A stretch of DNA of 64,000 bases, taken from an uncultured Desulfobacterales bacterium (lineage in GTDB: Bacteria > Desulfobacterota > Desulfobacteria > Desulfobacterales > SpSt-501). The stretch lies in NCBI GenBank assembly GCA_938048455.1, contig CALIUY010000016.1:14796-78795 (forward strand), written 5' to 3'. Position numbers and translations under genes: made by a program. Shown here piece by piece: positions 1-30,798 of the stretch. A model generated the notes under the pieces. That model had not been told where the DNA came from. It did not search any database and saw only the letters and a list, made by a program, of their open reading frames with translations. Each line of letters starts with the position of its first letter. Position 1 is the stretch's first letter.

Positions 1-543
1 ACCGAGAAGCCCGTAAAGCAGCAGAAGCGCCACCTCGTTCACCATCGGAGCGGCGATCAGAAACGAAAAGGTGACGCCCAGCGGAATGCCCGCGGTGACG
101 AAGCCGATGAACAGCGGAATCGCCGAGCAGGAGCAGAAGGGCGTGGCGACCCCGAGCAGGGCGGCGAGCACATTCCCCACGGCCTCCCGCCGGCCGGCGA
201 GGATGCGGCGCGTGCGTTCGGCGGTGAAGTAGGTGTTCAGAATGCCCACGGCGAAGACGACGACCGTCAGCAGCATCAACACCTTCGGCGTGTCGTACAA
301 GAAGAACTCGACCGCCGCGGCGAAATGCGAGCCGGCCTCCAGGCCGAACACATCGTATGTCAGGGCATGCGCCGCCTGGGGAAGCGCCCGGTAAACCGCC
401 CAACCGGCGCCGAGCACGACGAGGAACAGCGTCGCCTCCCAAAGTCGGATCTTCCGCGAGGCGGCGCCGCCCGTCGGCGCCGCAGGCTTGGCGGTCGCTC
501 CGCAGCAGGAGGAGGAAAACTCGGAGATCGGTTTCAACGACAT
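1..543 (-). CDS. COG0701/ArsP-type permease, N-terminal part (gene runs off the left edge)
   Basis: Absent from the ORF track because there is no stop in the window. Reverse-strand ATG at 543 is preceded by AAGGAG. Translation MSLKPISEFSSSCCG...TPFCSCSAIPLFIGFVTAGIPLGVTFSFLIAAPMVNEVALLLL carries the TPFCSCS..PLF signature I associate with the PF03773 permease family. Paralogue of 28894-30309. Confidence 0.8.
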   Translation of the reverse strand, partial: MSLKPISEFSSSCCGATAKPAAPTGGAASRKIRLWEATLFLVVLGAGWAVYRALPQAAHALTYDVFGLEAGSHFAAAVEFFLYDTPKVLMLLTVVVFAVGILNTYFTAERTRRILAGRREAVGNVLAALLGVATPFCSCSAIPLFIGFVTAGIPLGVTFSFLIAAPMVNEVALLLLYGLLG

Positions 544-609
544 GGGGACTCCTTTACGGTTCGCTTCGGGGAGAGTTTGGGGCTTCCGGGTGCCGCGGGG
601 GGTCGTTGC

Positions 610-2052
610 TCAAGCGGAAGGCTTTTCCTTGCCCTCCCGGGGTTGACGCGATGCGGACGGCTGAAGGGCCTGCCGCAGGATTTCGATCGGGTGGCGGACG
701 GGATAGGAGAGAAGCTGCTCGAACTGCAGTCTGCAGCTCAGGCAATCGGTTACGATCGCCTGAGGATGGATCTCCCGAATGCGGCGCATCAAACGGTCGC
801 CGAGTGCGATCGAGGCCTCGTGAAAATCCTGTTTGAACCCCATCACGCCGGCCAGACCGCAGCAATGGAGGTTTCCCTCGAGAGCGGTCGGCTCCAGTTC
901 CGGTACCCGCCGCAGCAGCTCAAGGTAAGGCCGGCCGAACTGCTGCTCCCGCTGATGGCAGGGTGGATAGTAAAGGGCCTGCAACCGGAGCGGGGAAAAT
1001 CCCTGCGGTCCTTCGCCCTCCCGCTCACGCTGCAGAAGGTATTCGCCGACGTCGTAGACTTTCTCGGCGACGGCGATGCGCTGCAGGGGGTCGAGCCCCG
1101 AGAAATAGCCGTCGTCTTTCAGGATGTTTTTGAACATGGCGCGGTCGAAGACTTCCATCCCGCCCACGGGCCGCCCCCCCGCCCGGGCGCGCGCCGGCAC
1201 CTGGATAAAACGCGCGTCGGCCCCCACGCGCTGCTGATAGGCTTCGGAAAAATAAGCCCCCTCGGCGAGCAGCCCGCGCAGCATGAAGCTGCAGGTCGGG
1301 CAGGAGCAGAGAATGTCGTATCCCTCCTCCACCGCCGCGGAAAGGACGGCAAGGTTTTGGGCCGCGGCCCGCAGGGTGAACTCGCGGTCGCCCTCGAGGA
1401 AGGAAGGCATGCCGCAGCAAGAAAGCGGCGGGCAGAAAACGGTCAACCCCCAAGCCTGCAAAACCTCGACCGTGGAGCGAGCGACCTCCGGGAAAAGGTA
1501 GGTCGCCGTGCAGCCCGCAAAATAGACGACCCGCCTTCCTTCCGCAGCCTGCGGTTTTCGGTCAAGCCCGCGTTTCCGCACCCAGGCCAGGAAATTCTCC
1601 TTGGAGAAAGCGGGAAGCCGGCGCTCGGAATGGATCCCGAGCCACCGCTTCAGACGCTTTCCCATCCGCGGAGAGGAGAGCAGCCGGTCGGTCATTCGCG
1701 GGAAAGCGCCGCAGATTCTCCCGAGCCGAGCGACATCTTCAATCAGGCGCACGCGCGGGGGAAGCCCGTCGCGGGCGACGAAAGCGGTCTTGGCGCGGAT
1801 GATGTCCGCGCGGATGTTGGGGCAGGGGCAAAGCGCACAGAAATTGCACTTCTCGACCATGCCGCGCAGTTCATCGGAGGAGGGCTTACGGCCGGTCTCC
1901 ATTTCCCGATCATGGAGACGGTAAAGCTCGGGGAAAAAGAGACAGGCCTCGTCCAGAATCGGGCGGCAGCAGTCGCAATCGGCGCAGTCGCGGATAATCC
2001 TCCGCGCGATCTCTTCCGGCACGGCCGCTGGGGGGGAATCCTTCGCCTTCAT
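610..2052 (-). CDS. HdrD/GlpC-like Fe-S oxidoreductase with two CCG domains
   Basis: ORF 610..2277 trimmed to ATG 2052 (GAGGA 6 nt upstream; the longer N-terminus is S/G/R-rich). Two ferredoxin-type Cys clusters (CADCDCCRP, CNFCALCPCP) are followed by two CCG motifs (LSCCGMP, LHCCGLAG). Confidence 0.85.
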   Translation of the reverse strand: MKAKDSPPAAVPEEIARRIIRDCADCDCCRPILDEACLFFPELYRLHDREMETGRKPSSDELRGMVEKCNFCALCPCPNIRADIIRAKTAFVARDGLPPRVRLIEDVARLGRICGAFPRMTDRLLSSPRMGKRLKRWLGIHSERRLPAFSKENFLAWVRKRGLDRKPQAAEGRRVVYFAGCTATYLFPEVARSTVEVLQAWGLTVFCPPLSCCGMPSFLEGDREFTLRAAAQNLAVLSAAVEEGYDILCSCPTCSFMLRGLLAEGAYFSEAYQQRVGADARFIQVPARARAGGRPVGGMEVFDRAMFKNILKDDGYFSGLDPLQRIAVAEKVYDVGEYLLQREREGEGPQGFSPLRLQALYYPPCHQREQQFGRPYLELLRRVPELEPTALEGNLHCCGLAGVMGFKQDFHEASIALGDRLMRRIREIHPQAIVTDCLSCRLQFEQLLSYPVRHPIEILRQALQPSASRQPREGKEKPSA

Positions 2053-2059
2053 GATATCC

Positions 2060-2371
2060 TCAGGTTTCGGGCCGCCGGGGATGCACGAAAAGCCGCCAGC
2101 AGCCGTAATCTCCCATGTACACGGGAAGAATCCCCCCCTCCGGTGGGATCTCCTCGAGAAGCCGGCGCTCGATGAACAGCTCGATTCCGGCCGCTTGCAA
2201 CCGTTCGCAGGATCGATGGTCCAAGGGCTTGCCGATCCGACCGATCGGCCCATCGACTCCGTGTCATCAGCCGACAACGGTCTTGCCGGAGAAGACGCTC
2301 AGGATGCCTCCCCGGTCGGCGATGAACAGCTGCTGTTCTTTAGAAAGCTCGATGCTCCAGGATCGTTTCAC
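2060..2371 (-). CDS. Candidate selenoprotein with vicinal Sec-Sec (UU), possibly thioredoxin/ArsD-like fold
   Basis: The frame starts at GTG 2371 (GTGA overlap with the arsR stop) and ends at TGA 2060-2062. It contains two consecutive in-frame TGA codons at 2264-2269 (codons 35-36). Translation: MKRSWSIELSKEQQLFIADRGGILSVFSGKTVVG-U-U-HGVDGPIGRIGKPLDHRSCERLQAAGIELFIERRLLEEIPPEGGILPVYMGDYGCWRLFVHPRRPET. Protein-like composition continues in the same frame across the TGAs, and a hairpin at 2225-2251 follows. Alternative reading: a 34-aa peptide ended by a tandem stop. Confidence 0.5.
2225..2251 (-). promoter_or_regulatory. Candidate bacterial SECIS hairpin after the tandem UGA
   Basis: RNA GGGCCGAUC-GGUCG-GAUCGGC (7 bp, GU-containing 5-nt loop; a further GG/CC closure is possible). 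It starts 12 nt after the second UGA. Confidence 0.4.
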
Positions 2372-2787
2372 CGCCTCCCCCTTCCCCGGCCTGGCGCTTC
2401 GCCGGCCCGCAACGGGCGTTGTCGGACCGGGCCCGGGGCCGGCAGATCGCAACGGGCCTTCCGACGCCAAACCTCCGCCGACCTTTCGCGCCGCCCCGGA
2501 CTCGACGAAGCATCCTGCAGGCGGGCGCGGACGACGGAAAGCGCCTGCCTGACCGCAGGTGCGGCTTGCCGTCCGATTCGCCGGTAATACATCCAGCGGC
2601 CCCGTTTCTCCGCCGCCACCAGCCCCGCACGCCGCAGGATACCCATGTGCTGCGAGACCGTGGACGGCGCCAGCCCAAGCAGCTGCGCCACCTCGCACGC
2701 ACAGAGTTCTCCGTCCTCGAGAGCGAAAAGCACGCGCAGACGGTTTTCGTCGGCGAGCGCCCGAAGAAGATGGACGAGATCCCTCAT
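2368..2787 (-). CDS. arsR: ArsR/SmtB-family metalloregulator
   Basis: LRALADENRLRVLFAL..GELCACEVAQLLGLAPSTVSQHMGILRRAGLV is a winged HTH with a CxC site in the ELCxCE position. The last ~45 aa are R/P/G-rich and look unusual. Confidence 0.85.
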   Translation of the reverse strand: MRDLVHLLRALADENRLRVLFALEDGELCACEVAQLLGLAPSTVSQHMGILRRAGLVAAEKRGRWMYYRRIGRQAAPAVRQALSVVRARLQDASSSPGRRERSAEVWRRKARCDLPAPGPVRQRPLRAGEAPGRGRGRR

Positions 2788-2847
2788 CCCGTTATCCTGT
2801 CCGTTCCCGGCGGCGGAAGCAGGCTGACACCCCGAGGCCGGCTCCGC

Positions 2848-3942
2848 TCAGGGCTTGCAACTCAGGTAGCACACCCCCGCCGGCGTCTCGATCGCGTAAG
2901 GGAAATATTTCTTGCGGAAAGCAAGCGCCACGTTGACCAGGCTGATCAAGATCGGCACCTCGAGCAAGGGCCCGATGACGGTGGCAAAAGCCTGTCCGGA
3001 ATGGATGCCGAAGATGGCCACGGCCACCGCGATGGCCAGTTCGAAGTCGTTGCTGCCGGCGGTGAACGATACGGTGGTGGTCTGGGCGTAGTTCGACTTG
3101 ATTTTGTAGGCGATGAAAAAGGTCACAAACCACATCAGGAAGAAATAGATGGCCATCGGCAACGCGACGATCAACACATCGAGCGGCGTTTTGACGATCT
3201 TGTCGCCCTGGAGCGAAAACATGACGATGATGGTGAAGAGCAGGGCGACCAAGGTGATCGGCGAAATTTTGGGGATAAAGCGGGTTTCATACCATTCTCG
3301 GCCCTTGGCCTTGAGAAGCGAAAACCGGGTCACCACCCCCCCGATAAAGGGGATGCCCAGATAGATGAACACCGTCTTGGCGGCTTCGCCCATGGAGATG
3401 CTCACATCCAGACCCTTCACCAGCCCGAGCCAGTTCAGCCCGAGGGTGATGAAGAGATAAATCATCGGCGCGTAAAAAAGGACCTGAAAAACGGCGTTGA
3501 AGGCGACGAGCCCGACCGCCAGCTCGCGGTCGCCTTCCGCCAGTTCGTTCCAAACGATCACCATGGCGATGCAGCGGGCGAGGCCGACCAGGATGACTCC
3601 GATCATGTACTCCGGATGGTGGCGCAAGAAGAGAATCGCCAGCACGAACATCACCAGCGGCCCGATGACCCAATTCTGCAACAAGGAGATGACCAGCAGC
3701 CTTTTGTGCTGCAGCACCTTGCCCATCTCTTCGTATTTCACCTTTGCCAGCGGAGGATACATCATCAAAATCAGGCCGATGGCGATGGGAATCGAAGTGG
3801 CCCCGATTTGCATGCCGGATATGATCTGCGTGGCCGCCGGGAGGTAGTATCCCATCAGGATCCCCGTTGCCATGGCGAGGAAAATCCAAAGCGTAAGAAA
3901 GCGGTCCAGAAAGTTCAGGCGCTGGATATTCGTCGCTGCCAT
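2848..3942 (-). CDS. acr3: ACR3-family arsenite efflux transporter
   Basis: ORF 2848..3996 trimmed to ATG 3942 (AAGGAGG 6 nt upstream). [16 protein letters not shown]...[18 protein letters not shown] is typical of the Acr3/ArsB(ACR3) family. Polytopic membrane protein. Confidence 0.9.
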
Positions 3943-3994
3943 CGCGGCCTCCTTTCCAACGCGCCCGCGCGGCTTTCGCACCGGCGCGATGAAC

Positions 3995-4014
3995 ATTTCG
4001 TCGGGGAACGAAAT
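3995..4014. promoter_or_regulatory. Inverted repeat ATTTCGT-N6-ACGAAAT, candidate ArsR operator
   Basis: Perfect 7-bp arms that overlap the -10 element and predicted start site of the acr3 promoter. Confidence 0.55.
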
Positions 4015-4040
4015 ATAGAGAAGCCGAAAAATTCTGTCAA
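4012..4040 (-). promoter_or_regulatory. Sigma70-type promoter of the acr3-arsR operon
   Basis: Reverse strand TTGACA-17 nt-TATATT, about 70 nt upstream of ATG 3942. Confidence 0.65.
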
Positions 4041-22462: not shown

Positions 22463-22987
22463 TCAAGAATCGAAGTCAAACCGGCTCAGGTAGCCCTCCA
22501 ACCTCCCGCGGGCTTCCTCGTCAAGCTCGGGGCAATCGGCGGCCGACTTCACCCCCTCGGCGGCCCTCGCGGCGAAGACCATGCAGGTCGGCTCCCCGCA
22601 GCGCCGGCAATTGGTCCGCGGCAGCAGCTTCAGGATCTCGAGCACCTGGGGCTTGGGCGCTCCCTCGTCGCTCGGAGTGATCGTGGCGCGGTTCTCCCAG
22701 GCCTGGTTGATTTCGCGTTTCAGCCATTCGAGAATCTTGTCGGCCTCGGCCTCGTCATTCAGGGCGTTGATGGCGATCTCGCGGCCGTGGATGGTGATCA
22801 GTCGGCCGCGCGAACGCAGCACGAGCGCCGGCGGATCCTTCAAATACTCGAACCCGCCCAAAACCGCGTTCAGATAAGGCAGCACCGCGGAGACATCCTG
22901 ATGCAGGGTCGCGATGCAGTGCAGCGACTCAAAGCGCGGATTGCACTCCGCGCGGAAAATCCTCTTGGTGTATCCTTCAAGCAGCAT
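22463..22987 (-). CDS. Fe-S-binding protein with RnfB/CdhD-type N-terminal-cluster motif at its C-terminus
   Basis: Trimmed to ATG 22987 (GGAGGAGG upstream). LPRTNCRRCGEPTCMVFAARAA matches the Cx2Cx4C Fe-S cluster domain pattern. Confidence 0.65.
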   Translation of the reverse strand: MLLEGYTKRIFRAECNPRFESLHCIATLHQDVSAVLPYLNAVLGGFEYLKDPPALVLRSRGRLITIHGREIAINALNDEAEADKILEWLKREINQAWENRATITPSDEGAPKPQVLEILKLLPRTNCRRCGEPTCMVFAARAAEGVKSAADCPELDEEARGRLEGYLSRFDFDS

Positions 22988-23073
22988 ACGACCTCCTCCC
23001 GGCGAACACGCCGCTTCGCCGGCCTGGCTTTTCAGGGATGCGCGGGGCCGTAGCCGACCTCGAAGACAGGCAT

Positions 23074-23268
23074 TCAATGGCGCGCGAGCGCTTTCTCCAC
23101 CCGCTTGAGCAGCTCCTCGCGCACGAAGGCCAGCGCCTCCTCGGCCTGCCCGTCGAAGGCGATCGCGAGCAGCCGCTGCACCTCCTCGGGCCCGAGCGCA
23201 ATCAGAACCGGTTTCAACGGAAAGCTCACCTTCTCCTCCTCACGATGGGTTTCCCGATCGCCGGTCAT
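23074..23268 (-). CDS. Hypothetical small protein (64 aa)
   Basis: The ORF starts 3 nt after the stop of the upstream gene. Helical, acidic sequence (LIALGPEEVQRLLAIAFDGQAEEALAFVREELLKRVEKAL). No family recognised. Confidence 0.45.
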   Translation of the reverse strand: MTGDRETHREEEKVSFPLKPVLIALGPEEVQRLLAIAFDGQAEEALAFVREELLKRVEKALARH

Positions 23269-23271
23269 TTG

Positions 23272-24420
23272 CTATTCGACCACACCGGTCACCATCACCT
23301 GGAGCGCCGGACGGGCGGGGTGATCGGTTTCGATCACCACCATGTCGGCGATCCGGCCGGGCTCCTTGCGGGTGCTGAAAATCGTGAGCTCGTAGACCGT
23401 CCCCGAAGGACCGCTTTTCTGGGCCAACTGAAAGCGAATGTCGCGTCCTTTCACGGCCCGGAGGTTCCGGATGGCGAAGGGCCGCTCGGGGCGCGGCAGG
23501 ATTCGGGCGACGGCGCTCGCCGTCTCTCCCGCTTTCGCCCGCAACAGGACACTTTTGGGCTGGATGTCGGCGAAGGCCTCGACCCGCCCGCTGAGCATCA
23601 GCTCCAGAACAGCGGCGGCGGGGTCGTTGGTGTGCACCACCACCGCTTCGCGGATATCCCGGCCGGCGTATCCCGCGGTCTTGAATTCCACCCGGATCGT
23701 GCCTTGGCCTCCGGCAGGGATGAGCCTCGTCGACGAGGCCGCCGTGCAGCCGCAACCCGTTTTCAGCTTTTCGATTCGCAGCTCGGCCGTCCCCCGGTTC
23801 TCGACCACGAATTCATGACGCACGAGGTCGCCCTCGATGGCCGTGCCGAAGTCGTGGTGGGGTTTTGGCACCACAACGGCAGGGGAGCCGGCCTCGGCGA
23901 CGCCGCTGCCGCCAGCGGACAGCCAGAAGATCGCCAGCAGCAACGGCGCGGTTTTGCCGGCCGCCCGGCGGGCGAAAAACACGCTGTAAAAAAGGACCAG
24001 CGCCACGGCGAGAAACAGGCCGTCCCGCAGCAAAACCCAGTGGGTCGCCAGCGCCGGGCCCTCGCTTCCGGTGCTGAAGCAGCCGCAGTGGACGTCCAGG
24101 CCGCGGGCGGCGTTGAAAGCGAGCGCGCCGACAAACACCAGCAGCAGACCGTTGGCCGACAGCACGGCGCCGGGGAGCCAAAAACCGGTGATCAAGCACA
24201 GACCGAGGAAAAGCTCCATCCACGGAAGCGCCAGCGCGACCAGATGCACGAGGACATCGGGAAGGATTTGATAATTGTAGACGTCCTTGGCGAAGGCCGC
24301 CGGGTGGGCGATCTTGTCCAGGCTCGCGTAGACGAAGATCCCCCCCAGGAGCAACCGGGCCCCGAGCTGCATCCAATCGGCGGCCCCCCTGCGCAGCGGA
24401 CGCCCGGACTCAGTGTGCAT
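23272..24420 (-). CDS. MauE/DoxX-family membrane protein fused to a DUF1573-like beta-sandwich domain
   Basis: Trimmed to ATG 24420, which overlaps the upstream stop by 11 nt. The N-terminal 4-TM region has CGCF; the C-terminal HDFGTAIEGDLVRHEFVVENRGTAELRIEKLKTGCGCT is typical of DUF1573. Confidence 0.75.
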   Translation of the reverse strand: MHTESGRPLRRGAADWMQLGARLLLGGIFVYASLDKIAHPAAFAKDVYNYQILPDVLVHLVALALPWMELFLGLCLITGFWLPGAVLSANGLLLVFVGALAFNAARGLDVHCGCFSTGSEGPALATHWVLLRDGLFLAVALVLFYSVFFARRAAGKTAPLLLAIFWLSAGGSGVAEAGSPAVVVPKPHHDFGTAIEGDLVRHEFVVENRGTAELRIEKLKTGCGCTAASSTRLIPAGGQGTIRVEFKTAGYAGRDIREAVVVHTNDPAAAVLELMLSGRVEAFADIQPKSVLLRAKAGETASAVARILPRPERPFAIRNLRAVKGRDIRFQLAQKSGPSGTVYELTIFSTRKEPGRIADMVVIETDHPARPALQVMVTGVVE

Positions 24421-25408
24421 GCCCAGCCTCCTTTCCGTTGAGGCAAGAAAGGCCGCAGAGGAGTTCGCCGTTGCCGCAGTCCGCGGTTTCGAACTGGAAG
24501 ACCGGATGATCGATCCCGAAGCGCTCGCGGAGATGGCATCGCAGCGTCTGGGCCAGAGCCTCCGTGCGGCTGACCGCCTGATCGGGCACGACCACGTGGC
24601 AGGAAAAGGCCACGCCGCTCGAGGAGAGATTCCAGGCATGGAGGTAGTGAACGCTCCGGACGCCGGGGATCTTTTCCATATCGCGCTTCACGGTCGCAAG
24701 ATCCAGCCCCCGGGGCGTGGAATTCATGAGGATCAGGCCCGATTCGCGGGCGATGCTCCAGGAATTCTTGAGGATGAAGATCACGATGGCGAACGAAAGC
24801 AGCGGGTCGAGCCAATACCAGGGACGCACGGTGAGAATGGCCCCCCCGATCAACACGGCGACCGAGGTCAGCATATCGCCCACCATGTGCCAGAACGCGC
24901 CGCGCACGTTGAGGCTGTGCCGGGCGTCCCGATGAAGAAGCCAGGCCGACAGGCCGTTTCCCGCGACCCCCACCGCGGCAAGCCCCATCACGAGCTCCCC
25001 CGTCACCACCGTGGGATGCCGCAAGCGATCAACGGCTTCGACGAGGATGACCGCCGAGGCCCCCGCGAGCAGGGCGACCTGCACGAGCGCGGCCAACACC
25101 TCGGCGCGCCGAAAGCCGAAGGTGTGCCGCACGGAGGCACCGCGCCGACCGATGCGGAAGGCGAAATAGGCGATCATCACGGCTGCGAAATCGCCGAAAT
25201 TGTGCGTGGCATCCGAGATGAGCGCCATGCTGCCGGCGGCGAGTCCCCCCGCCACCTGAGCGAGGGGAATCAAGAGATTCAACCCCAGGGTGACGAGAAG
25301 GCGGGTGCCGGTGTGTCCGTCCCCCTCTTCGGCGGGGACCGACCCGGAACCCCCTCCAGGGGTCGCCGGAGGCGGAGTTTCAAGCGGAAAGCCGTGCCGC
25401 GTGCTCAT
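24410..25408 (-). CDS. Cation diffusion facilitator (CzcD/ZitB-like) metal exporter
   Basis: ISDATHNFGD and WHMVGD (HxxxD-type) motifs in TM helices; C-terminal cytoplasmic domain. The ATG 25408 start is preferred over TTG 25441. Confidence 0.85.
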   Translation of the reverse strand: MSTRHGFPLETPPPATPGGGSGSVPAEEGDGHTGTRLLVTLGLNLLIPLAQVAGGLAAGSMALISDATHNFGDFAAVMIAYFAFRIGRRGASVRHTFGFRRAEVLAALVQVALLAGASAVILVEAVDRLRHPTVVTGELVMGLAAVGVAGNGLSAWLLHRDARHSLNVRGAFWHMVGDMLTSVAVLIGGAILTVRPWYWLDPLLSFAIVIFILKNSWSIARESGLILMNSTPRGLDLATVKRDMEKIPGVRSVHYLHAWNLSSSGVAFSCHVVVPDQAVSRTEALAQTLRCHLRERFGIDHPVFQFETADCGNGELLCGLSCLNGKEAGHAH

Positions 25409-25445
25409 GGACAGGTTTTCCCGACACCCGGGCGGCGGCAAAAAA

Positions 25446-26162
25446 TCATGCCGACCAGAGAAGCCAAACCGGGTTGAGCAGAAAGTAGATCCCCAGCAGG
25501 CCGATCACGGCCCCGGCCGCCTTGCGGAACCAGGCTCCGGCCCCCTGCCAGGCGCTGTTTTCGACGAGCCGCCGGACGGCCGCGGTCGAACTGCCGGCGA
25601 CGGCGATCGGCAGGCAGTGGCCGATCCCGAAAAGAAGGATCAAGGCGATCCCCTGGAGCGGTTCCCGCTGAACGGTGATCATGGCCAGAATGGGGGCGAT
25701 GAATCCGAAGGTGCAGGAACCGGACAGGATGCCGTAGCCCAGTCCCAGAGCGAAAGCGCCGCGGCGGCCCCGGAAATTCAAGCGGTAGAGCAGGCTGCCC
25801 GAGGCCGAGCAGGACTCGACCCCCATCATGCCGAGCGCGACCCAGATCAGGACCGCACCCACGAGGATCTGCCACCAGGAACCGATATCCCCCAACATCC
25901 GGCCGAGAAGCGCGCATGCCGCTCCGATCAGACCGATCGTGAGAAAAAGCCCGGCGCTGAAGAGCCCGGCGTAAACCGCGGCCTGCCGGGGAACGAGCGC
26001 TTTTTCCTGGCCGCCGACGTAGGCGACGATCAGCGGGATCGAGGCGAGATGGCAGGGGCTGAAGAGCACGCTGACCATCCCCCAGATGAAGGCGCCGGCG
26101 GCGGCAAGCCCGCTTCCTCCGACCATCCACTCGTTTGCGGCAACAAAAAGCGCTTCCAGCAC
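25446..26162 (-). CDS. CcdA/DsbD-type thiol-disulfide electron-transfer membrane protein
   Basis: LFSPCHLASIPL and SGSCTFGF half-site Cys motifs; 6-TM architecture. Confidence 0.85.
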   Translation of the reverse strand: MLEALFVAANEWMVGGSGLAAAGAFIWGMVSVLFSPCHLASIPLIVAYVGGQEKALVPRQAAVYAGLFSAGLFLTIGLIGAACALLGRMLGDIGSWWQILVGAVLIWVALGMMGVESCSASGSLLYRLNFRGRRGAFALGLGYGILSGSCTFGFIAPILAMITVQREPLQGIALILLFGIGHCLPIAVAGSSTAAVRRLVENSAWQGAGAWFRKAAGAVIGLLGIYFLLNPVWLLWSA

Positions 26163-26172
26163 GACACTCTCC

Positions 26173-27075
26173 TCAGCGGATGCCGATCTGCGCGAGCACC
26201 CGGTTCACCTCGACCTCGGGGAAAAACCCTTCGTGGCGGAAGACCTCTTTGCCCTGGCGGTCAAAAAAGACCTGGACCGGAATCGCCCGGATCCCGTAAC
26301 GGGCGGCGAGAAGTTTCTCCTCGCCCACATGAACGAACACGACGTTCAAGCGCGGCCCATGCGCTTGGCGGAGCTTTTCGAGGATGGGCTGCATCATGTC
26401 GCACGGCACACAGCCGGAGGCCCCGAACTCCACGAGTGTGGGCTTCCCGGAAAAACGCGCCCGATCGACGGGATTGTCCTGCGCGGTCTCGGCCTTGCTT
26501 TGGAGCCAGGAGGCGTTGACCTCCAGGGGAACCCTTTTTTCGAGTGCCGCGAGAAAATCGACGACGGCCTGCTCCTGTTTTTGCTGCAGGAGCATCTGAC
26601 GGATCGCCCCCGAGACCTGCTCGTAGGGCGCCCCGCCGATCATCTCCCGGTTCTGCTCGTAGAAGGCTCGGACTTCGGTCTGGGAGACGCTCGCTTTGGC
26701 GCTTAGGCGACGGAAGAGAGCTTCGACCGCCTGGTCCTCCGATACCCCGGGGCCTGCGAGTCCCTGGCGCTTTGCTTCGCGAACGAGGATCCGACGGCCG
26801 GCCTCGCGCTCCAAAAGAAAGAAGCGGTTTCTCTCGAGCTGAGGCCTCCAGTCCGAGGGCGCCTCCTGCAACAGCCGCTCCAGCTCCTCGGCACGGATTT
26901 CCAGCTCTTCGCTTCGGAAGAGCACCGCGGCGGGAAGCGCGGACAGGCGCGCCGCACGCAGCACCCCTCCCGCCAGGCCGGGATAGCGTTCGTCTACGGT
27001 CGCCGCGGCGGCGGGGGAGGCGGCGAAAGCGAACACGGAGATCAGGAGCAAGACAAACGCCGCGGCCGCTTTCAT
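26173..27075 (-). CDS. Periplasmic SurA-N-like chaperone domain fused to thioredoxin (CVPC)
   Basis: Trimmed to ATG 27075 (ATGA overlap with the upstream stop). Signal peptide MKAAAAFVLLLISVFAFA, a helical chaperone-like region, then EFGASGCVPCDMM..AIPVQVFF. Confidence 0.75.
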   Translation of the reverse strand: MKAAAAFVLLLISVFAFAASPAAAATVDERYPGLAGGVLRAARLSALPAAVLFRSEELEIRAEELERLLQEAPSDWRPQLERNRFFLLEREAGRRILVREAKRQGLAGPGVSEDQAVEALFRRLSAKASVSQTEVRAFYEQNREMIGGAPYEQVSGAIRQMLLQQKQEQAVVDFLAALEKRVPLEVNASWLQSKAETAQDNPVDRARFSGKPTLVEFGASGCVPCDMMQPILEKLRQAHGPRLNVVFVHVGEEKLLAARYGIRAIPVQVFFDRQGKEVFRHEGFFPEVEVNRVLAQIGIR

Positions 27076-27452
27076 TTGACCCCCATCTTCGCCAGTTGCT
27101 CGACGATCGCCTTTTCGCTCATGAACCCCATGTGGCGAAAGACTTCCTTTCCGTTCTTGTCGAAGAAGATCTGTGTGGGAATGGCCCGGATGCCGAAGCG
27201 CCGGGCCTGCTCGGGATAGCGATAGATATCGATGACGATCACCGCCGCGCGGTCCCGGTAATCCTGCTCGACCTTTTTGAGGATCGGGGCCATCAGCTTG
27301 CAAGGCACGCACTGGTCGGACCCCAGGTCGAGCAGGGTCACCATGCCTTGGACCGGAACGTGGCGAAAGTCCTCCGCCGCGGCTTGCGCCGAACCGCAGG
27401 AGACGAGGATGAGGAAAGCCAGGAGCGATCCTGCCCGGCGCACCGTATTCAT
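27072..27452 (-). CDS. Periplasmic thioredoxin (CVPC)
   Basis: Signal peptide, LLDLGSDQCVPCKLM, AIPTQIFF cis-Pro region. Confidence 0.85.
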   Translation of the reverse strand: MNTVRRAGSLLAFLILVSCGSAQAAAEDFRHVPVQGMVTLLDLGSDQCVPCKLMAPILKKVEQDYRDRAAVIVIDIYRYPEQARRFGIRAIPTQIFFDKNGKEVFRHMGFMSEKAIVEQLAKMGVK

Positions 27453-27868
27453 CCGCAGCAGCCTCCGAAAGCCGTCCGGAGCGCCGCGCCTTCCCGCTCC
27501 GCGCAGGCGGCGCGAACGGCTTCTTTCACGCGACGCACATCCTGCGGATGGAGCTCGAAGTTTTTGTTCTTTTCGATTCCCAGCTCCGTGAGCACGATGT
27601 GGCGGAAGGATTCGATGCCGGCCCGCCGGAGGGTCGCCCGGGCGCAGCCGACGGGACAGCCGTCGATCGCCGCGATCAGCGGCACATCATTCGCGGACTG
27701 AATGAAGCCCTGAAGCCCGCCGCCGATTCCGGCGAGGCAATACATCGTCCCGAACCTTTCCTGCGTGAGCTCCACCGCGGCCTGGTTGGCGATCTGCCCC
27801 ACATTCGAGCCGCCCGAGCAGGCGAGAATCATCACCGCATTGCCGTTCGCGCAACAATTGTCAACCAT
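27449..27868 (-). CDS. DGC-domain putative metal-binding protein
   Basis: ILACSGGSNVGQIANQAA and AIDGCPVGCA motifs, characteristic of the DGC domain. Confidence 0.75.
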   Translation of the reverse strand: MVDNCCANGNAVMILACSGGSNVGQIANQAAVELTQERFGTMYCLAGIGGGLQGFIQSANDVPLIAAIDGCPVGCARATLRRAGIESFRHIVLTELGIEKNKNFELHPQDVRRVKEAVRAACAEREGAALRTAFGGCCG

Positions 27869-27978
27869 CGATGTCTCCTCCGGAAAGAAATTCGTTCAGG
27901 GTCGCGCAACCGAACCGTCATTCCGGACGGGGTCCGCGATCCTGAGGGATCGGGAACTGCGGACACGAGTGGATCCCT

Positions 27979-28030
27979 GAAAACAAAACCCCGACGCCAC
28001 CCCCTGCGGACATCCTCCGGGCGGCGCCGG
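27979..28030 (-). terminator. Rho-independent terminator after the small thioredoxin gene
   Basis: RNA CCGGCGCCGCCC...GGGGUGGCGUCGG forms a 12-bp stem (two G-U pairs), followed after 2 nt by UUUUGUUUU. Confidence 0.7.
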
Positions 28031-28049
28031 AGCGGTTTTCGCTTCCGGC

Positions 28050-28283
28050 TCAACGCTTGAGCCACTGCTTGACTTCTTCTTTGGTGGGAATCTTACCGAC
28101 GCATTTCACCTCTCCATCCACCACCACGGAAGGGGTGCCGAACACTCCGTAGTCGGCGATTTTCAGCATGTCGGTCACCTTCTCGACCACGGCATCGGCA
28201 CCGACCTCCGCCAAGGCTTCTTTGACGATGCGCTCGGTCTGCTGGCACTTGGGGCATCCGGGCCCCAGCACTTTGATGTTCAT
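28050..28283 (-). CDS. Small thioredoxin-fold protein (redox-active disulfide protein 2 type, CPKC)
   Basis: 77 aa. MNIKVLGPGCPKCQ...GTPSVVVDGEVKCVGKIPTKEEV. Confidence 0.85.
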   Translation of the reverse strand: MNIKVLGPGCPKCQQTERIVKEALAEVGADAVVEKVTDMLKIADYGVFGTPSVVVDGEVKCVGKIPTKEEVKQWLKR

Positions 28284-28367
28284 CTTGCCGAATCTCCTTT
28301 CCCCTCACGGTTCTTCTGGAAGAATTACATAACTTCCGCCCGATCGCAAGGCGTGCCGATCTCGTCG

Positions 28368-28868
28368 TCATCCGCCGGCGGCCGCTCGAAGCCACTCTCG
28401 AAGCTGGCTGCGCGCGGGAACCCGGCCGACGGCGACCACCTTGCCGTTGATCACGAGCGCCGGGCTGCCCATCACCCCGTAACAGGCGATTTCCTGGATG
28501 TCGCGCACGTGCTCGAGGTCGGCGGGGAGCTTGAGCTCGGCGAGAACCGCCATCAGGTCTTTCTCGAGGCGGTCGCATTGCGGGCAGCCGGGCCCCAGGA
28601 CCTTGATCCTCAGCCCGCCTTCTTCTGTTTCGGGAAGCGGCTGCCCGATGAACTTGCGGTACTCCCGGTAGAGAGCCGCGCGATAGGACTCCCGGGCCGA
28701 GGGAACGACATAGTTCTTTTCGCTCACCCGGGCGAGCAGGGCTTCTTCGATGACGGCACGATCCCGGTCGGCGAAATCCCGTGCGACCTCTTCCAGAATG
28801 GATTTCAGGCCGATGATGCCGACGAGATGGCTGCCGATGCGAATCTGGATTACTTCCGTGTCGCCCAT
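28368..28868 (-). CDS. Two-domain protein: unknown N-terminal domain plus small thioredoxin fold (CPQC)
   Basis: Trimmed to ATG 28868 (AGGAG 8 nt upstream). The C-terminal IKVLGPGCPQCDRL...GSPALVINGKVVAVGRVP is paralogous to 28050-28283. Confidence 0.75.
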   Translation of the reverse strand: MGDTEVIQIRIGSHLVGIIGLKSILEEVARDFADRDRAVIEEALLARVSEKNYVVPSARESYRAALYREYRKFIGQPLPETEEGGLRIKVLGPGCPQCDRLEKDLMAVLAELKLPADLEHVRDIQEIACYGVMGSPALVINGKVVAVGRVPARSQLREWLRAAAGG

Positions 28869-28893
28869 GATGCCGCTCCTGTCCTCACGGGAT

Positions 28894-30309
28894 TCAGAAA
28901 AAGGTTCCGAACAGCATTCCGCAGACCGTGGAAAGAACAATGACCAAGCTGCAATAAAGCACGGTTTTCTGGGTGCCGATGACGCTGCGGATGACGAGCA
29001 TGTTGGGCAGGCTGAGCGCCGGGCCGGCAAGCAGCAGCGCGAGCGCCGGGCCCTTGCCCATGCCGGCGGAGATCAGGCCCTGCAGGATCGGAACCTCGGT
29101 CAGGGTGGCGAAGTACATGAAGGCCCCGACCACGGCGGAAAAGAGATTGGCCCCCAGCGAGTTTCCGCCGACCCAGCGCTTGACCCACTCCGAGGGGATG
29201 ATGCCCTCCGTGCCGGGCTGCCCCAGAAGCAGACCGGCCACGAGCACCCCGCCGAGAAGAAGAGGGGTGATCTGCTTGGCGAAATCCCAGGAGGAAAGAA
29301 ACCAGGACTCCGTTTCCCCCCGGGTCGAGGCGAGAAGCCAGCCGAAGACCAGGATCCCGGCCGAAAAGGCGGCAAGCGGCCGGCCGGGGAAGAAAAGGGC
29401 GAAGGCGATCACCACCGCAGCACCGACGGCGACCTTGGCCGCTTTCACCCGGAACCAGGCGACGAGGATGCCGCCGAGCGCCGCCGCGGCGATCCCCGCA
29501 AGCCACCACTTCACGGAAAAAACCGCATTCCAGAGCCGGTCGGATGCGTCCTCGGAGCGGCTCCACGTGGCGAAGATCAGGACCATGACAAGCAGGGCGA
29601 ATTGCAGCGCGTTCTGCCACAGGGGACGCGTCACGGGAGCCTCCGGCAGGTGAAGCGCGGCCTGGGCTTTCTGGGCCTCCTCCTTGCGGTAGATCAGGTA
29701 CATGAGGAAACCGATCACGATGCTGAAAAGGATCGCCCCTACGGCGCGGGCGATCCCGATCTCCAGGCCGAGGATGCGTGCGGTCATCACGATGGCGAGC
29801 ACGTTGATCGCCGGACCCGAGTAGAGAAAGGCGATCGCCGGCCCCAAGCCCGCCCCCCGTCTCCAGATGCCGGCGAACAGGGGAAGCACGGTGCAGGAAC
29901 ATACGGCAAGGATGCTGCCGGAAACGGAGGAGACCCCGTAGGCGAGCACCTTAGAGGCGCCGGCGCCGAGGTATTTCATGACCGCCGCCTGGGAGACGAA
30001 GGTGGCGATCGCCCCGGCGATGAAAAATGCGGGCACCAGGCAGAGCAGCACGTGCTCGCGGGCATACCACTTTGTCAGCGCAAGCGAGGAGATCACCGCC
30101 TCTTGCAGGCGCGCGCTCTCGACCGGAAGGAAATAGAAGACGAGAAACGCCGCCACGATCGCCAGAAGCGGTTTGGCGATGTTGCGCCAATCGATCAGGC
30201 TCGGCTGACCGCCGCTTTCTTCGGTGACGGGGGCGGTACTGTTTTCTACGGATTCTCCGGTTGCCGGATAGGCGGAGGTGGTTTTCATCGGGGTTTTCCT
30301 CTTCTCCAC
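28894..30309 (-). CDS. COG0701/ArsP-type permease
   Basis: 471-aa polytopic protein. AVCSCTVLPLFAGIWRRGAGLG signature and a duplicated half. Paralogue of 1-543. Confidence 0.85.
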   Translation of the reverse strand: MEKRKTPMKTTSAYPATGESVENSTAPVTEESGGQPSLIDWRNIAKPLLAIVAAFLVFYFLPVESARLQEAVISSLALTKWYAREHVLLCLVPAFFIAGAIATFVSQAAVMKYLGAGASKVLAYGVSSVSGSILAVCSCTVLPLFAGIWRRGAGLGPAIAFLYSGPAINVLAIVMTARILGLEIGIARAVGAILFSIVIGFLMYLIYRKEEAQKAQAALHLPEAPVTRPLWQNALQFALLVMVLIFATWSRSEDASDRLWNAVFSVKWWLAGIAAAALGGILVAWFRVKAAKVAVGAAVVIAFALFFPGRPLAAFSAGILVFGWLLASTRGETESWFLSSWDFAKQITPLLLGGVLVAGLLLGQPGTEGIIPSEWVKRWVGGNSLGANLFSAVVGAFMYFATLTEVPILQGLISAGMGKGPALALLLAGPALSLPNMLVIRSVIGTQKTVLYCSLVIVLSTVCGMLFGTFF

Positions 30310-30378
30310 ATCAAGGGGCGCAAAAAATCCCCACCGACATCCCCCCTGAGGGAGGGTTGGACTATGATTGACCTTAGG

Positions 30379-30762
30379 TCATGAAAAGGGAACGGATTGC
30401 CTTCCGGTGATGAGCTCTCTGCGGACAAGACGCGCGCGGGATACTTCCTCCAGGATCGCCGGATCTTCCTCCAACCAGGTGGAAAGCTCGCGCAACAGCT
30501 TGGCAGCGAAGGGGTTGGCGGAATCGCGGGAAAGCTCGTAGTTCACCCACAGCCCATCTTTCGAAGATACAACAAAACCCATTTCTTCCAATAACTTAAG
30601 GTGTTTTGATACGGTCGGCTGCGAAATATGCAACAATGCCGTCAACTCGCAAACACATAGGCACCGGCGATGTTGCAAGTATTTAAGGATACGCACCCTG
30701 CTGGGATCGGCCAGCGCTTTCATCGTTCTTGTGAGCAAATTCAAAGACGAAAGAATATTCAT
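30379..30762 (-). CDS. arsR: ArsR/SmtB-family metalloregulator (CVC site)
   Basis: MKALADPSRVRILKYL..RRCLCVCELTALLHISQPTVSKHLKLLEEMGFV. ORF 30379..30879 trimmed to ATG 30762 (alternative 30723). Notably lower GC than the surroundings. Confidence 0.85.
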   Translation of the reverse strand: MNILSSLNLLTRTMKALADPSRVRILKYLQHRRCLCVCELTALLHISQPTVSKHLKLLEEMGFVVSSKDGLWVNYELSRDSANPFAAKLLRELSTWLEEDPAILEEVSRARLVRRELITGRQSVPFS

Positions 30763-30769
30763 GTTGGGC

Positions 30770-30798
30770 AATATAGTAAGGTCCCCGTTGCCTGTCAA
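30770..30798 (-). promoter_or_regulatory. Sigma70-type promoter of the arsR-permease-thioredoxin cassette
   Basis: Reverse strand TTGACA-17 nt-TATATT. The -10 ends 7 nt before ATG 30762, which implies a leaderless transcript or use of ATG 30723. Confidence 0.6.

Follow-up and report, generated by a model that had tools for sequence, protein, structure and literature searches.

Catalogues of arsenic-resistance (ars) genes have been built mainly on aerobes and facultative bacteria. Sulfate-reducing sediments and paddy soils are sites of arsenic mobilisation, methylation and thiolation, and the redox biochemistry of the anaerobes living there is poorly known. The parts already known include the ars operon itself, Acr3, ArsR, ArsM, ArsN2, PF03773 permeases accompanied by ArsE, and the CC/Se family. 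The genes named in a 2018 review are arsR, A, B, C, D, H, I, J, M, N, O, P, T and acr3; a CCG-domain or other iron-sulfur (Fe-S) enzyme is not among them (PMC6205960). Here we analyse a stretch of 64,000 nucleotides from an uncultured Desulfobacterales bacterium (GenBank assembly GCA_938048455.1, contig CALIUY010000016.1, positions 14,796 to 78,795; hereafter the window), in which a gene for a soluble, HdrD/GlpC-like Fe-S protein of 480 residues with two CCG domains (610..2052, minus strand; hereafter the CCG protein) stands in a row of ars genes, directly downstream of a gene for a small protein with two adjacent selenocysteines (Sec-Sec; hereafter the UU protein). A full-text search, which covered few subscription journals, found no literature link of a CCG/HdrD/GlpC-like protein to ars operons, and we have not found such a protein described before as a conserved gene of ars islands. 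The evidence is entirely genomic, yet the protein is of interest as a tangible candidate for the arsenic redox chemistry of anaerobes: an Fe-S oxidoreductase in the ars operons of about 50 species, near arsM, ArsP and a Sec-Sec protein, is a clonable candidate for the missing steps.

The CCG domains of HdrB hold non-cubane clusters that reduce the heterodisulfide CoM-S-S-CoB (PDB 5odc), a compound that cannot be the substrate in a bacterium of this kind. Catalytic units of the HdrB/HdrD type, including DsrK, are like the CCG protein in having two complete CCG motifs, and the N-terminal cysteines of the CCG protein would fit a two-cluster domain as in HdrD and DsrK; the context of those units is energy metabolism, whereas that of the CCG protein is arsenic resistance. 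The partners that mark an HdrD or DsrK were absent, as no HdrE/DsrM-type cytochrome b, HdrA or HdrC is encoded in the row or recurs in the 80 related loci described below. GlpC has the same architecture as the CCG protein, with two Fe-S cysteine clusters and two CCG domains. In actinobacteria, ars clusters (arsRBOCT) encode a thioredoxin reductase, ArsT, and a thioredoxin, ArsX (PMC6514093, PMC6205960). We propose a functional analogy with this pair, as the CCG protein, too, may be part of a disulfide-reducing system inside an ars operon that supplies reducing power. ArsT is an NADPH flavoenzyme, whereas the CCG protein is of the Fe-S/CCG type and has neither a flavin nor a pyridine-nucleotide domain; the carrier beside it would, unlike ArsX, be the Sec-Sec protein or other thiol proteins. 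ArsP, finally, is a methylarsenite efflux permease of the Campylobacter jejuni type (Chen et al. 2015, as cited in PMC6514093 and PMC11653729) for which co-evolution with arsM has been reported (PMC11653729), and Pseudodesulfovibrio mercurii ND132 has an arsenic-induced arsR-arsP-arsE(-DGC) operon; the genes given for the ND132 ars operons in the accessible part of that preprint include no CCG or UU protein (bioRxiv 10.1101/2022.10.17.512643).

An Fe-S protein of HdrD/GlpC architecture

By its sequence, the CCG protein is a genuine CCG/Fe-S protein of HdrD/GlpC architecture. PF02754 matches it twice (74.6 bits against a gathering score of 20.6), and both copies of the motif C...CCG...CxxC are intact. 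In an alignment of 20 homologues, 19 cysteines are invariant; they include the complete first motif (C181, C212-C213, C249, C251 and C254) and the complete second one (C365, C397-C398, C437 and C440). The invariant N-terminal cysteines C23, C26, C29, C37 and C69, C72, C75, C77 fit two ferredoxin-type clusters, and the Pfam Fer4 models gave no match at E <= 0.01. No transmembrane or hydrophobic segment was found in the protein. Its gene is single-copy in the genome, the closest paralogues being less than 30% identical. In-frame stops in nine homologues raised the question of selenocysteine in the CCG protein itself; this was dismissed, the stops being C-terminal ones overrun by the alignment plus a single internal TAG (L081; L-numbers denote loci).

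The protein lies outside every curated functional family and falls below the cut-offs for both GlpC and HdrB. Its best curated match is GlpC (PRK11168), with 227.9 bits against a cut-off of 278 (E 1.9e-67); the second GlpC model, TIGR03379, gave 143.4 against 279.9 bits, and the HdrB model TIGR03288 only 32 against 345 bits. It further differs from GlpC in a family-specific insert that separates the two CCG domains, and in its ars neighbours. A profile of the family matched a single protein among PDB sequences, HdrB (E 3e-7), and HdrB is also a clear fold match: the AlphaFold2 (AF2) model (predicted local distance difference test score, pLDDT, 82.6) has LutA, mycobacterial EtfD and HdrB as its best fold matches. 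Among 8000 candidates scored from a large protein database, 1074 homologues were found at E <= 1e-20, about 470 residues long and 50-87% identical, which the databases currently name "GlpC" (JGI) or "heterodisulfide reductase-related". Judged from these sequences, the CCG protein represents a distinct soluble family of about 470 residues whose genes recur inside ars/thiol-redox islands of Desulfobacterota.

The CCG gene recurs in arsenic and thiol-redox islands

To describe the neighbourhood of the gene we scanned one genome per species, which gave 224 relatives, and analysed the best 80 loci (47-87% identical). Desulfobacterales and Syntrophobacteraceae supply most of these loci and Acidobacteriota two; no isolate is among the sources of the ars-linked ones. 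Gene maps were made by tblastn with the window's proteins and with Pfam/NCBIfam-annotated representatives of neighbour clusters, and thus depend on our own query set and on crude open reading frame (ORF) calls. The neighbourhood was taken as 8 kb on either side of the CCG gene; flanks are short on many contigs, and related genomes are not independent. Within these limits, 48 of the 80 loci have a core ars gene (acr3, arsM, arsN2, arsC or an ArsP-type permease), 44 have thiol-redox genes (secreted CxxC thioredoxin, CcdA, RnfB-type Fe-S protein, CDF plus MauE/DoxX, or ArsE/Thioredoxin_3), and 32 have both. In 27 of 66 evaluable loci, acr3 lies on the same strand no more than 1.5 kb upstream of the CCG gene. 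For a random gene, a position within 8 kb of acr3 would be expected in less than 1% of genomes, by simple arithmetic from 1-3 acr3 genes per 3-6 Mb. The first-pass annotation, made from the letters of the window, had named a neighbourhood not conserved in relatives as an argument against itself; by these counts the neighbourhood is conserved.

A FastTree phylogeny of the 80 proteins shows the ars label in all parts of the tree, with 17 changes, so the idea that ars-linked CCG genes form a single derived clade was rejected, and the link between ars genes and the CCG gene is therefore old and no accident of one clade. The CCG protein of the window itself belongs to a clade of 14 with 100% support (hereafter the window clade), every member of which is ars-linked.

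The gene immediately upstream of the CCG gene encodes the UU protein in six loci and a CxxC thioredoxin in nine. A small redox protein beside the CCG gene, as the first-pass annotation had it, is thus found in these loci; the thioredoxin, though, carries a signal peptide and for that reason is not a direct cytoplasmic substrate. The 32 "other" upstream neighbours are heterogeneous, on which ground a further small redox-carrier family in this slot was rejected.

For comparison we sampled Desulfobacterota as a whole, where 243 of 401 genomes have acr3. Neighbours in the 30 best-scoring acr3 loci of this sample (L105-L134) include arsC (14 loci), ArsE (11), secreted CxxC thioredoxin (7), CcdA (5) and RnfB-type Fe-S protein (5). 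From these counts, a thiol-redox relay seems to be a regular part of Desulfobacterota ars islands.

The row as a probable ArsR-controlled operon

On the minus strand of window positions 1-4040, the order is promoter/operator, acr3, arsR, UU gene, CCG gene and PF03773 permease gene, and beyond the left edge of the window, where a further 10 kb was examined (L002), the row continues with a gene of 222 codons without a name (unk222) and arsN2, giving seven genes in total. From acr3 to arsN2 the spacers are 60, -4 (a GTGA overlap), 7, 66, 37 and -4 nt (an ATGA overlap). Pfam/NCBIfam matches and translation confirmed the gene order, coordinates and domain calls that had been given for 1-4040. The arrangement is far beyond chance: the same row is present in L006 and L049 at 82-87% protein identity, with variants in dozens of species.

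Read from the sequence, the promoter/operator (3995..4040, minus strand) consists of TTGACA-17-TATATT at 4040-4012, the only consensus promoter upstream of the row and of sigma-70 type, and an inverted repeat without mismatches, ATTTCGT-N6-ACGAAAT (4014-3995); the repeat overlaps the -10 box and is presumed to be the ArsR operator. A scan predicted no promoter-like site on the minus strand from 3999 to past arsN2 and no terminator-like site in the intergenic spacers of the row. Terminator-like matches overall are at background (12 against 7.4 +/- 2.7), and the scan is informative only for the absence of intergenic matches. Because of the tight spacers and overlaps, together with this lack of a predicted internal promoter or intergenic terminator, co-transcription of the row from the promoter at 4040 is plausible.

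The first gene, acr3 (2848..3996, minus strand), encodes an arsenite efflux permease (TIGR00832, 453 bits against a cut-off of 283). Its longest ORF would place the first ATG within the operator repeat, some 8 nt from where the transcript is likely to begin. Since the TIGR00832 match begins only at residue 27, translation probably starts from the ATG at 3942, which follows AAGGAAG. The arsR gene (2368..2787, minus strand; PF01022 57.5 bits, NF033788 87.6 bits) has the metalloid site ELCACE in its translation. A CxC-site ArsR, a pump for arsenite and a promoter with an operator-like repeat are the features of an ArsR-controlled ars operon, and most of a seven-gene, ArsR-repressed arsenic operon is the best explanation of window positions 1-4040; the row would then be induced by arsenic. 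It looks like two joined modules, arsR-acr3-(UU)-CCG on the one hand and permease-unk222-arsN2 with arsM on the other.

The Sec-Sec protein and the permease

The UU gene (2060..2371, minus strand; 103 codons) has TGA-TGA at codons 35-36, and its GTG start overlaps the arsR stop. The UU pair and the motif GUUxxVxGPIGRIGxP...MGDYG do not vary among 10 homologues that represent nine species, and the genome encodes selA, selB, selD (with a TGA of its own) and tRNA-Sec. A candidate bacterial selenocysteine insertion sequence (SECIS) hairpin (2208..2263, minus strand) directly follows the UGA-UGA pair on the 3' side, and its apical loop, GGUCG, is about 22 nt away; its minimum free energy is -32.1 kcal/mol with a z of only -1.37 in GC-rich sequence, which is suggestive and not significant alone. 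With a conserved in-frame UGA, a hairpin after it and a genome that encodes Sec machinery, the UU gene combines the features of a bacterial selenoprotein gene. ARAGORN made two tRNA-SeC calls, at C22:145919-146016 (minus strand) and C17:172454-172545 (plus strand), where C-numbers denote contigs. The C17 copy is closely followed by a weak partial match to the selB model; the second call is perhaps a false positive or a true duplicate.

The CC/Se family (NF041239) has its redox pair at the same place as the UU protein, which has two Sec instead of one. Its model gives the UU protein 26.5 bits (E 5e-6) against a cut-off of 40, and the genome scan with this model at E <= 1e-4 did not recover the UU gene. 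The canonical CC/Se-family genes, in 19 loci from 16 of the 401 genomes, have neither CCG nor ars genes within 1.5 kb, on which ground a general link between CC/Se family and CCG genes was rejected. The UU protein is predicted to be soluble and cytoplasmic. In its AF2 model (pLDDT 75) the UU loop is disordered, and a likeness to the A-type carrier fold of SufA/IscA/DsrR is weak but consistent, below significance (VIA Z 4.0-3.1; Foldseek E 0.4-1). Neither ArsD nor thioredoxin is among the listed Foldseek/VIA matches of the model, Pfam ArsD did not match the protein, and a PDB profile search returned spurious RecA-concatemer rows only; an ArsD-like or thioredoxin-fold chaperone is not supported by these models. 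A C-terminal cysteine is kept in most UU homologues and could, together with UU, form a three-ligand metalloid site.

Next to the CCG gene, the UU gene occurs in seven of the 14 members of the window clade and, outside it, in L035 and L026; members without it include L009, L011, L012, L013, L016 and L084. The permease gene that follows the CCG gene (hereafter type 1) encodes an ArsP_1-family protein (PF03773/COG0701; 5' half at 1..543, minus strand), whose full gene of 369 codons ends 566 nt past the left edge. The full protein scores 241.6 bits with PF03773, has the motif TPFCSCS and is far below the cut-offs of the nearest curated equivalogs, SaoE and SO_0444. Linkage to arsM, a mark of ArsP, is present: arsM lies 1.1 kb beyond the 3' end of the permease gene, convergent with arsN2, and the linkage recurs in L006, L007, L012, L049 and L084. 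The likeness to ArsP, which rests on PF03773 and this linkage, indicates membership at the level of the family only. In the window clade, a type-1 permease follows the CCG gene in 11 of 12 loci at >=60% identity. Elsewhere it goes with arsM, unk222 and arsN2, and in L016 it belongs to a separate operon on the opposite strand. CCG, UU and permease genes are adjacent also in L006, L007, L010, L014 and L049, and most CCG genes have neither a UU gene nor a downstream permease gene. The fixed triad of CCG protein, UU protein and permease that had been read from the window alone therefore does not hold in general and is specific to one clade, since UU gene and downstream permease are mostly confined to the window clade.

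Possible functions of the CCG protein

We consider the CCG gene a candidate new arsenic-detoxification gene of strict anaerobes. The reading we prefer, with a probability of roughly 0.5, is that the CCG protein is the island's dedicated low-potential Fe-S thiol/selenol-disulfide oxidoreductase, which keeps arsenic-binding carriers reduced. Electrons from ferredoxin or quinol would enter through the two N-terminal ferredoxin-type 4Fe-4S clusters, and the paired CCG site with its non-cubane cluster would reduce an oxidised dithiol or diselenol carrier, which in the window clade may be the Sec-Sec protein encoded 7 nt upstream. Thiols and selenols that bind As(III) or methyl-As(III) would thus be kept reduced, and the metalloid would leave through Acr3 or ArsP, so that the protein could be the anaerobes' counterpart of the actinobacterial ArsT/ArsX pair. 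The chemistry, and with it the substrate, the direction of electron flow and the hand-off to Acr3 or ArsP, we infer from gene content and motifs. Several observations weigh against this reading. Neither an ars nor a thiol-redox neighbour was found in 20 of the 80 loci, many of them on short contigs, and a PAS kinase and/or sigma-54 activator is present in the flanks of 19. In the phylum-wide sample, none of the 30 best-scoring acr3 loci has a CCG gene within 1.5 kb; the CCG gene is for this reason an optional accessory of a common arsenic/thiol-redox island. No electron-donor gene adjoins the CCG gene, the UU partner is absent from half of the window clade and from almost every locus outside it, the thioredoxin of the upstream slot is an exported one by its signal peptide, and CCG domains are also found in enzymes without disulfide chemistry, such as LutA, GlpC and EtfD.

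A stricter version would make CCG protein, UU protein and permease an obligate unit, in which the CCG protein recycles the diselenide of UU and UU, as a chaperone, passes methyl-As(III) or As(III) to the ArsP-type permease. The spacers of 7 and 66 nt in the window, the adjacency of the three genes in five other loci, the possible three-ligand As(III) site, the faint resemblance of the UU model to A-type metal/cluster carriers and the low-potential reductant that a vicinal diselenide would presumably need all speak for it; we nevertheless regard it as improbable, given that half of the window clade and most other CCG loci do without UU, that most of the latter also lack the downstream permease, that the permease co-travels with arsM, unk222 and arsN2 or, in L016, sits in an operon on the other strand, that canonical CC/Se genes have no CCG neighbour and that the fold matches of UU are below significance. 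The CCG protein could instead itself reduce arsenate, methylarsonate or thioarsenate to trivalent species that are then exported or methylated; driven by ferredoxin or quinol, it would stand in for ArsC where the habitat is sulfidic and strictly anoxic. The CCG gene does occupy the slot after acr3, often the place of arsC, the window operon has no arsC, and thioarsenates are to be expected where sulfate is being reduced (PMC6205960). Within 1.5 kb of acr3, arsC is present in seven of 34 CCG loci as against 14 of 30 acr3 loci without a CCG gene (Fisher p = 0.035), a weak statistic in which genome relatedness is uncorrected and the two samples were drawn differently. That arsC is still present in those seven loci, and that contig C2 of the same genome carries three arsC copies of the LMWP type, makes such a reductase unlikely, if a little less so than the obligate unit; we also know of no CCG enzyme that reduces an oxyanion.

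A quite different possibility is a role that is not specific to arsenic: the protein would serve general electron transfer, or be a quinone-linked dehydrogenase subunit, in the manner of GlpC, LutA or EtfD, or act as a redox-stress enzyme, and would owe its place among ars genes to co-regulation of thiol-stress genes or to hitch-hiking. GlpC is after all its best curated match (PRK11168, 228 bits), LutA and EtfD are among its folds, and the 19 loci with a PAS histidine kinase or sigma-54 activator and the 20 without ars or redox neighbours would be easily accommodated. We doubt it about as strongly as we doubt the obligate unit: the protein is below the GlpC cut-offs (278 and 280 bits), the ars linkage extends over the tree and to 48 of 80 loci where less than 1% is expected, and the gene lies inside an ArsR-controlled row with spacers of 7 and 66 nt. 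No cytochrome b is among the recurrent neighbours or in the window row, and no glpA/glpB stands beside the gene, though no search by name was made for glpA/glpB, lutB/C or etfAB. A wider formulation, which spans part of the preferred reading and the reductase, is that the CCG protein represents an unrecognised class of ars gene of strict anaerobes, an Fe-S reductase driven by ferredoxin or quinol that either regenerates a Sec-Sec arsenic carrier or directly reduces pentavalent or thiolated arsenicals. In the carrier version, the vicinal diselenide would be too low in potential for ordinary thioredoxin systems. We hold this formulation tentatively, at somewhat less than even odds; if true, bacteria of sulfidic habitats would have a route of arsenic detoxification that is independent of ArsC and NADPH.

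A companion cluster and the extent of the island

A companion thiol-redox/ArsR cluster was mapped at 22466..30780 (minus strand) from Pfam matches and tblastn of the relatives' genes against the window's own genome. It contains arsR, a PF03773 permease of 471 residues (type 2), two ArsE/Thioredoxin_3 genes, two CxxC thioredoxins, CcdA, CDF, MauE/DoxX and an RnfB-type Fe-S protein. The first-pass annotation had noted the second COG0701 permease with ArsR and thioredoxin-fold neighbours, and these are indeed present: the type-2 permease at 28894-30309 (minus strand; 230 bits), arsR at 30466-30780 (minus strand) and the two adjoining Thioredoxin_3/ArsE genes. The arrangement at 28053-30780 (ArsR, PF03773 permease and two Thioredoxin_3/ArsE genes) is the known one of ND132, and in relatives the ND132-like cluster heads the island, at the other end of which are acr3 and the CCG gene.

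In L012, L084, L007, L038 and L041 the genes of the companion cluster, with their order unchanged, immediately precede arsR-acr3-CCG. In relatives, the usual order is arsR, type-2 permease, one or two ArsE, thioredoxin, CcdA, CDF/MauE and Fe-S protein, followed by arsR, acr3, thioredoxin or UU, CCG, type-1 permease, unk222 and arsN2, facing arsM and hgcC. Because both clusters are contiguous in relatives (L012, L084 and L007), they are better read as one island that is interrupted in the window genome, where about 18 kb of other genes separates the halves. The earlier view that the same logic appears twice in the window has to be given up accordingly in favour of a single split island. With the permease/ArsE/thioredoxin/CcdA cluster and the acr3 operon as parts of one island, the annotation of such loci changes, including the naming of the CCG gene as "GlpC".

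Genes beyond the window edge and elsewhere in the genome

Inside the window it is correct that arsC, arsA, arsB, arsM and arsH are missing, as had been pointed out; in the genome arsM lies just past the edge and arsC is present in the three copies on C2. The "module lacking arsM" is a window-edge artefact, because arsM and arsN2 are situated 1.7-2.5 kb beyond the left edge. The arsN2 gene (minus strand; NF040501, 150 bits) follows unk222 through the ATGA overlap, and arsM (plus strand; PRK11873, 346 bits) is convergent with the row. Upstream of arsM is an hgcC-like gene for a Cys-rich AbrB-type protein (L002:7142-7435, plus strand; NF040962, 119 bits against a cut-off of 70), so that the seven-gene row converges with an hgcC-like and arsM pair. 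The HgcC-model protein, which is HgcAB-associated, pairs here with arsM and not with hgcAB; the pairing is kept in L006, L007, L012, L049, L081 and L084.

In the genome search ArsH was not found, nothing passed the ArsA cut-off and the ArsB family gave no more than a marginal match. By tblastn against the own genome, the three LMWP-type arsC genes share C2 with two arsR genes and a divergent acr3. This second ars locus lies at about 96-107 kb, and its acr3 is just 31% identical to that of the window.

The remaining member of the row, unk222, encodes a soluble protein of 222 residues (L002:8728-9396, which is 604-1272 nt beyond the left edge; minus strand), starts 37 nt after the permease gene, has no Pfam or NCBIfam match and is a further uncharacterised gene of the ars island. 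It was found by tblastn in 11 of the 80 related loci at 51-90% identity, placed between the permease (or CCG) gene and arsN2, and its Cys/His motifs GTCTTKH and MVHCF look conserved.

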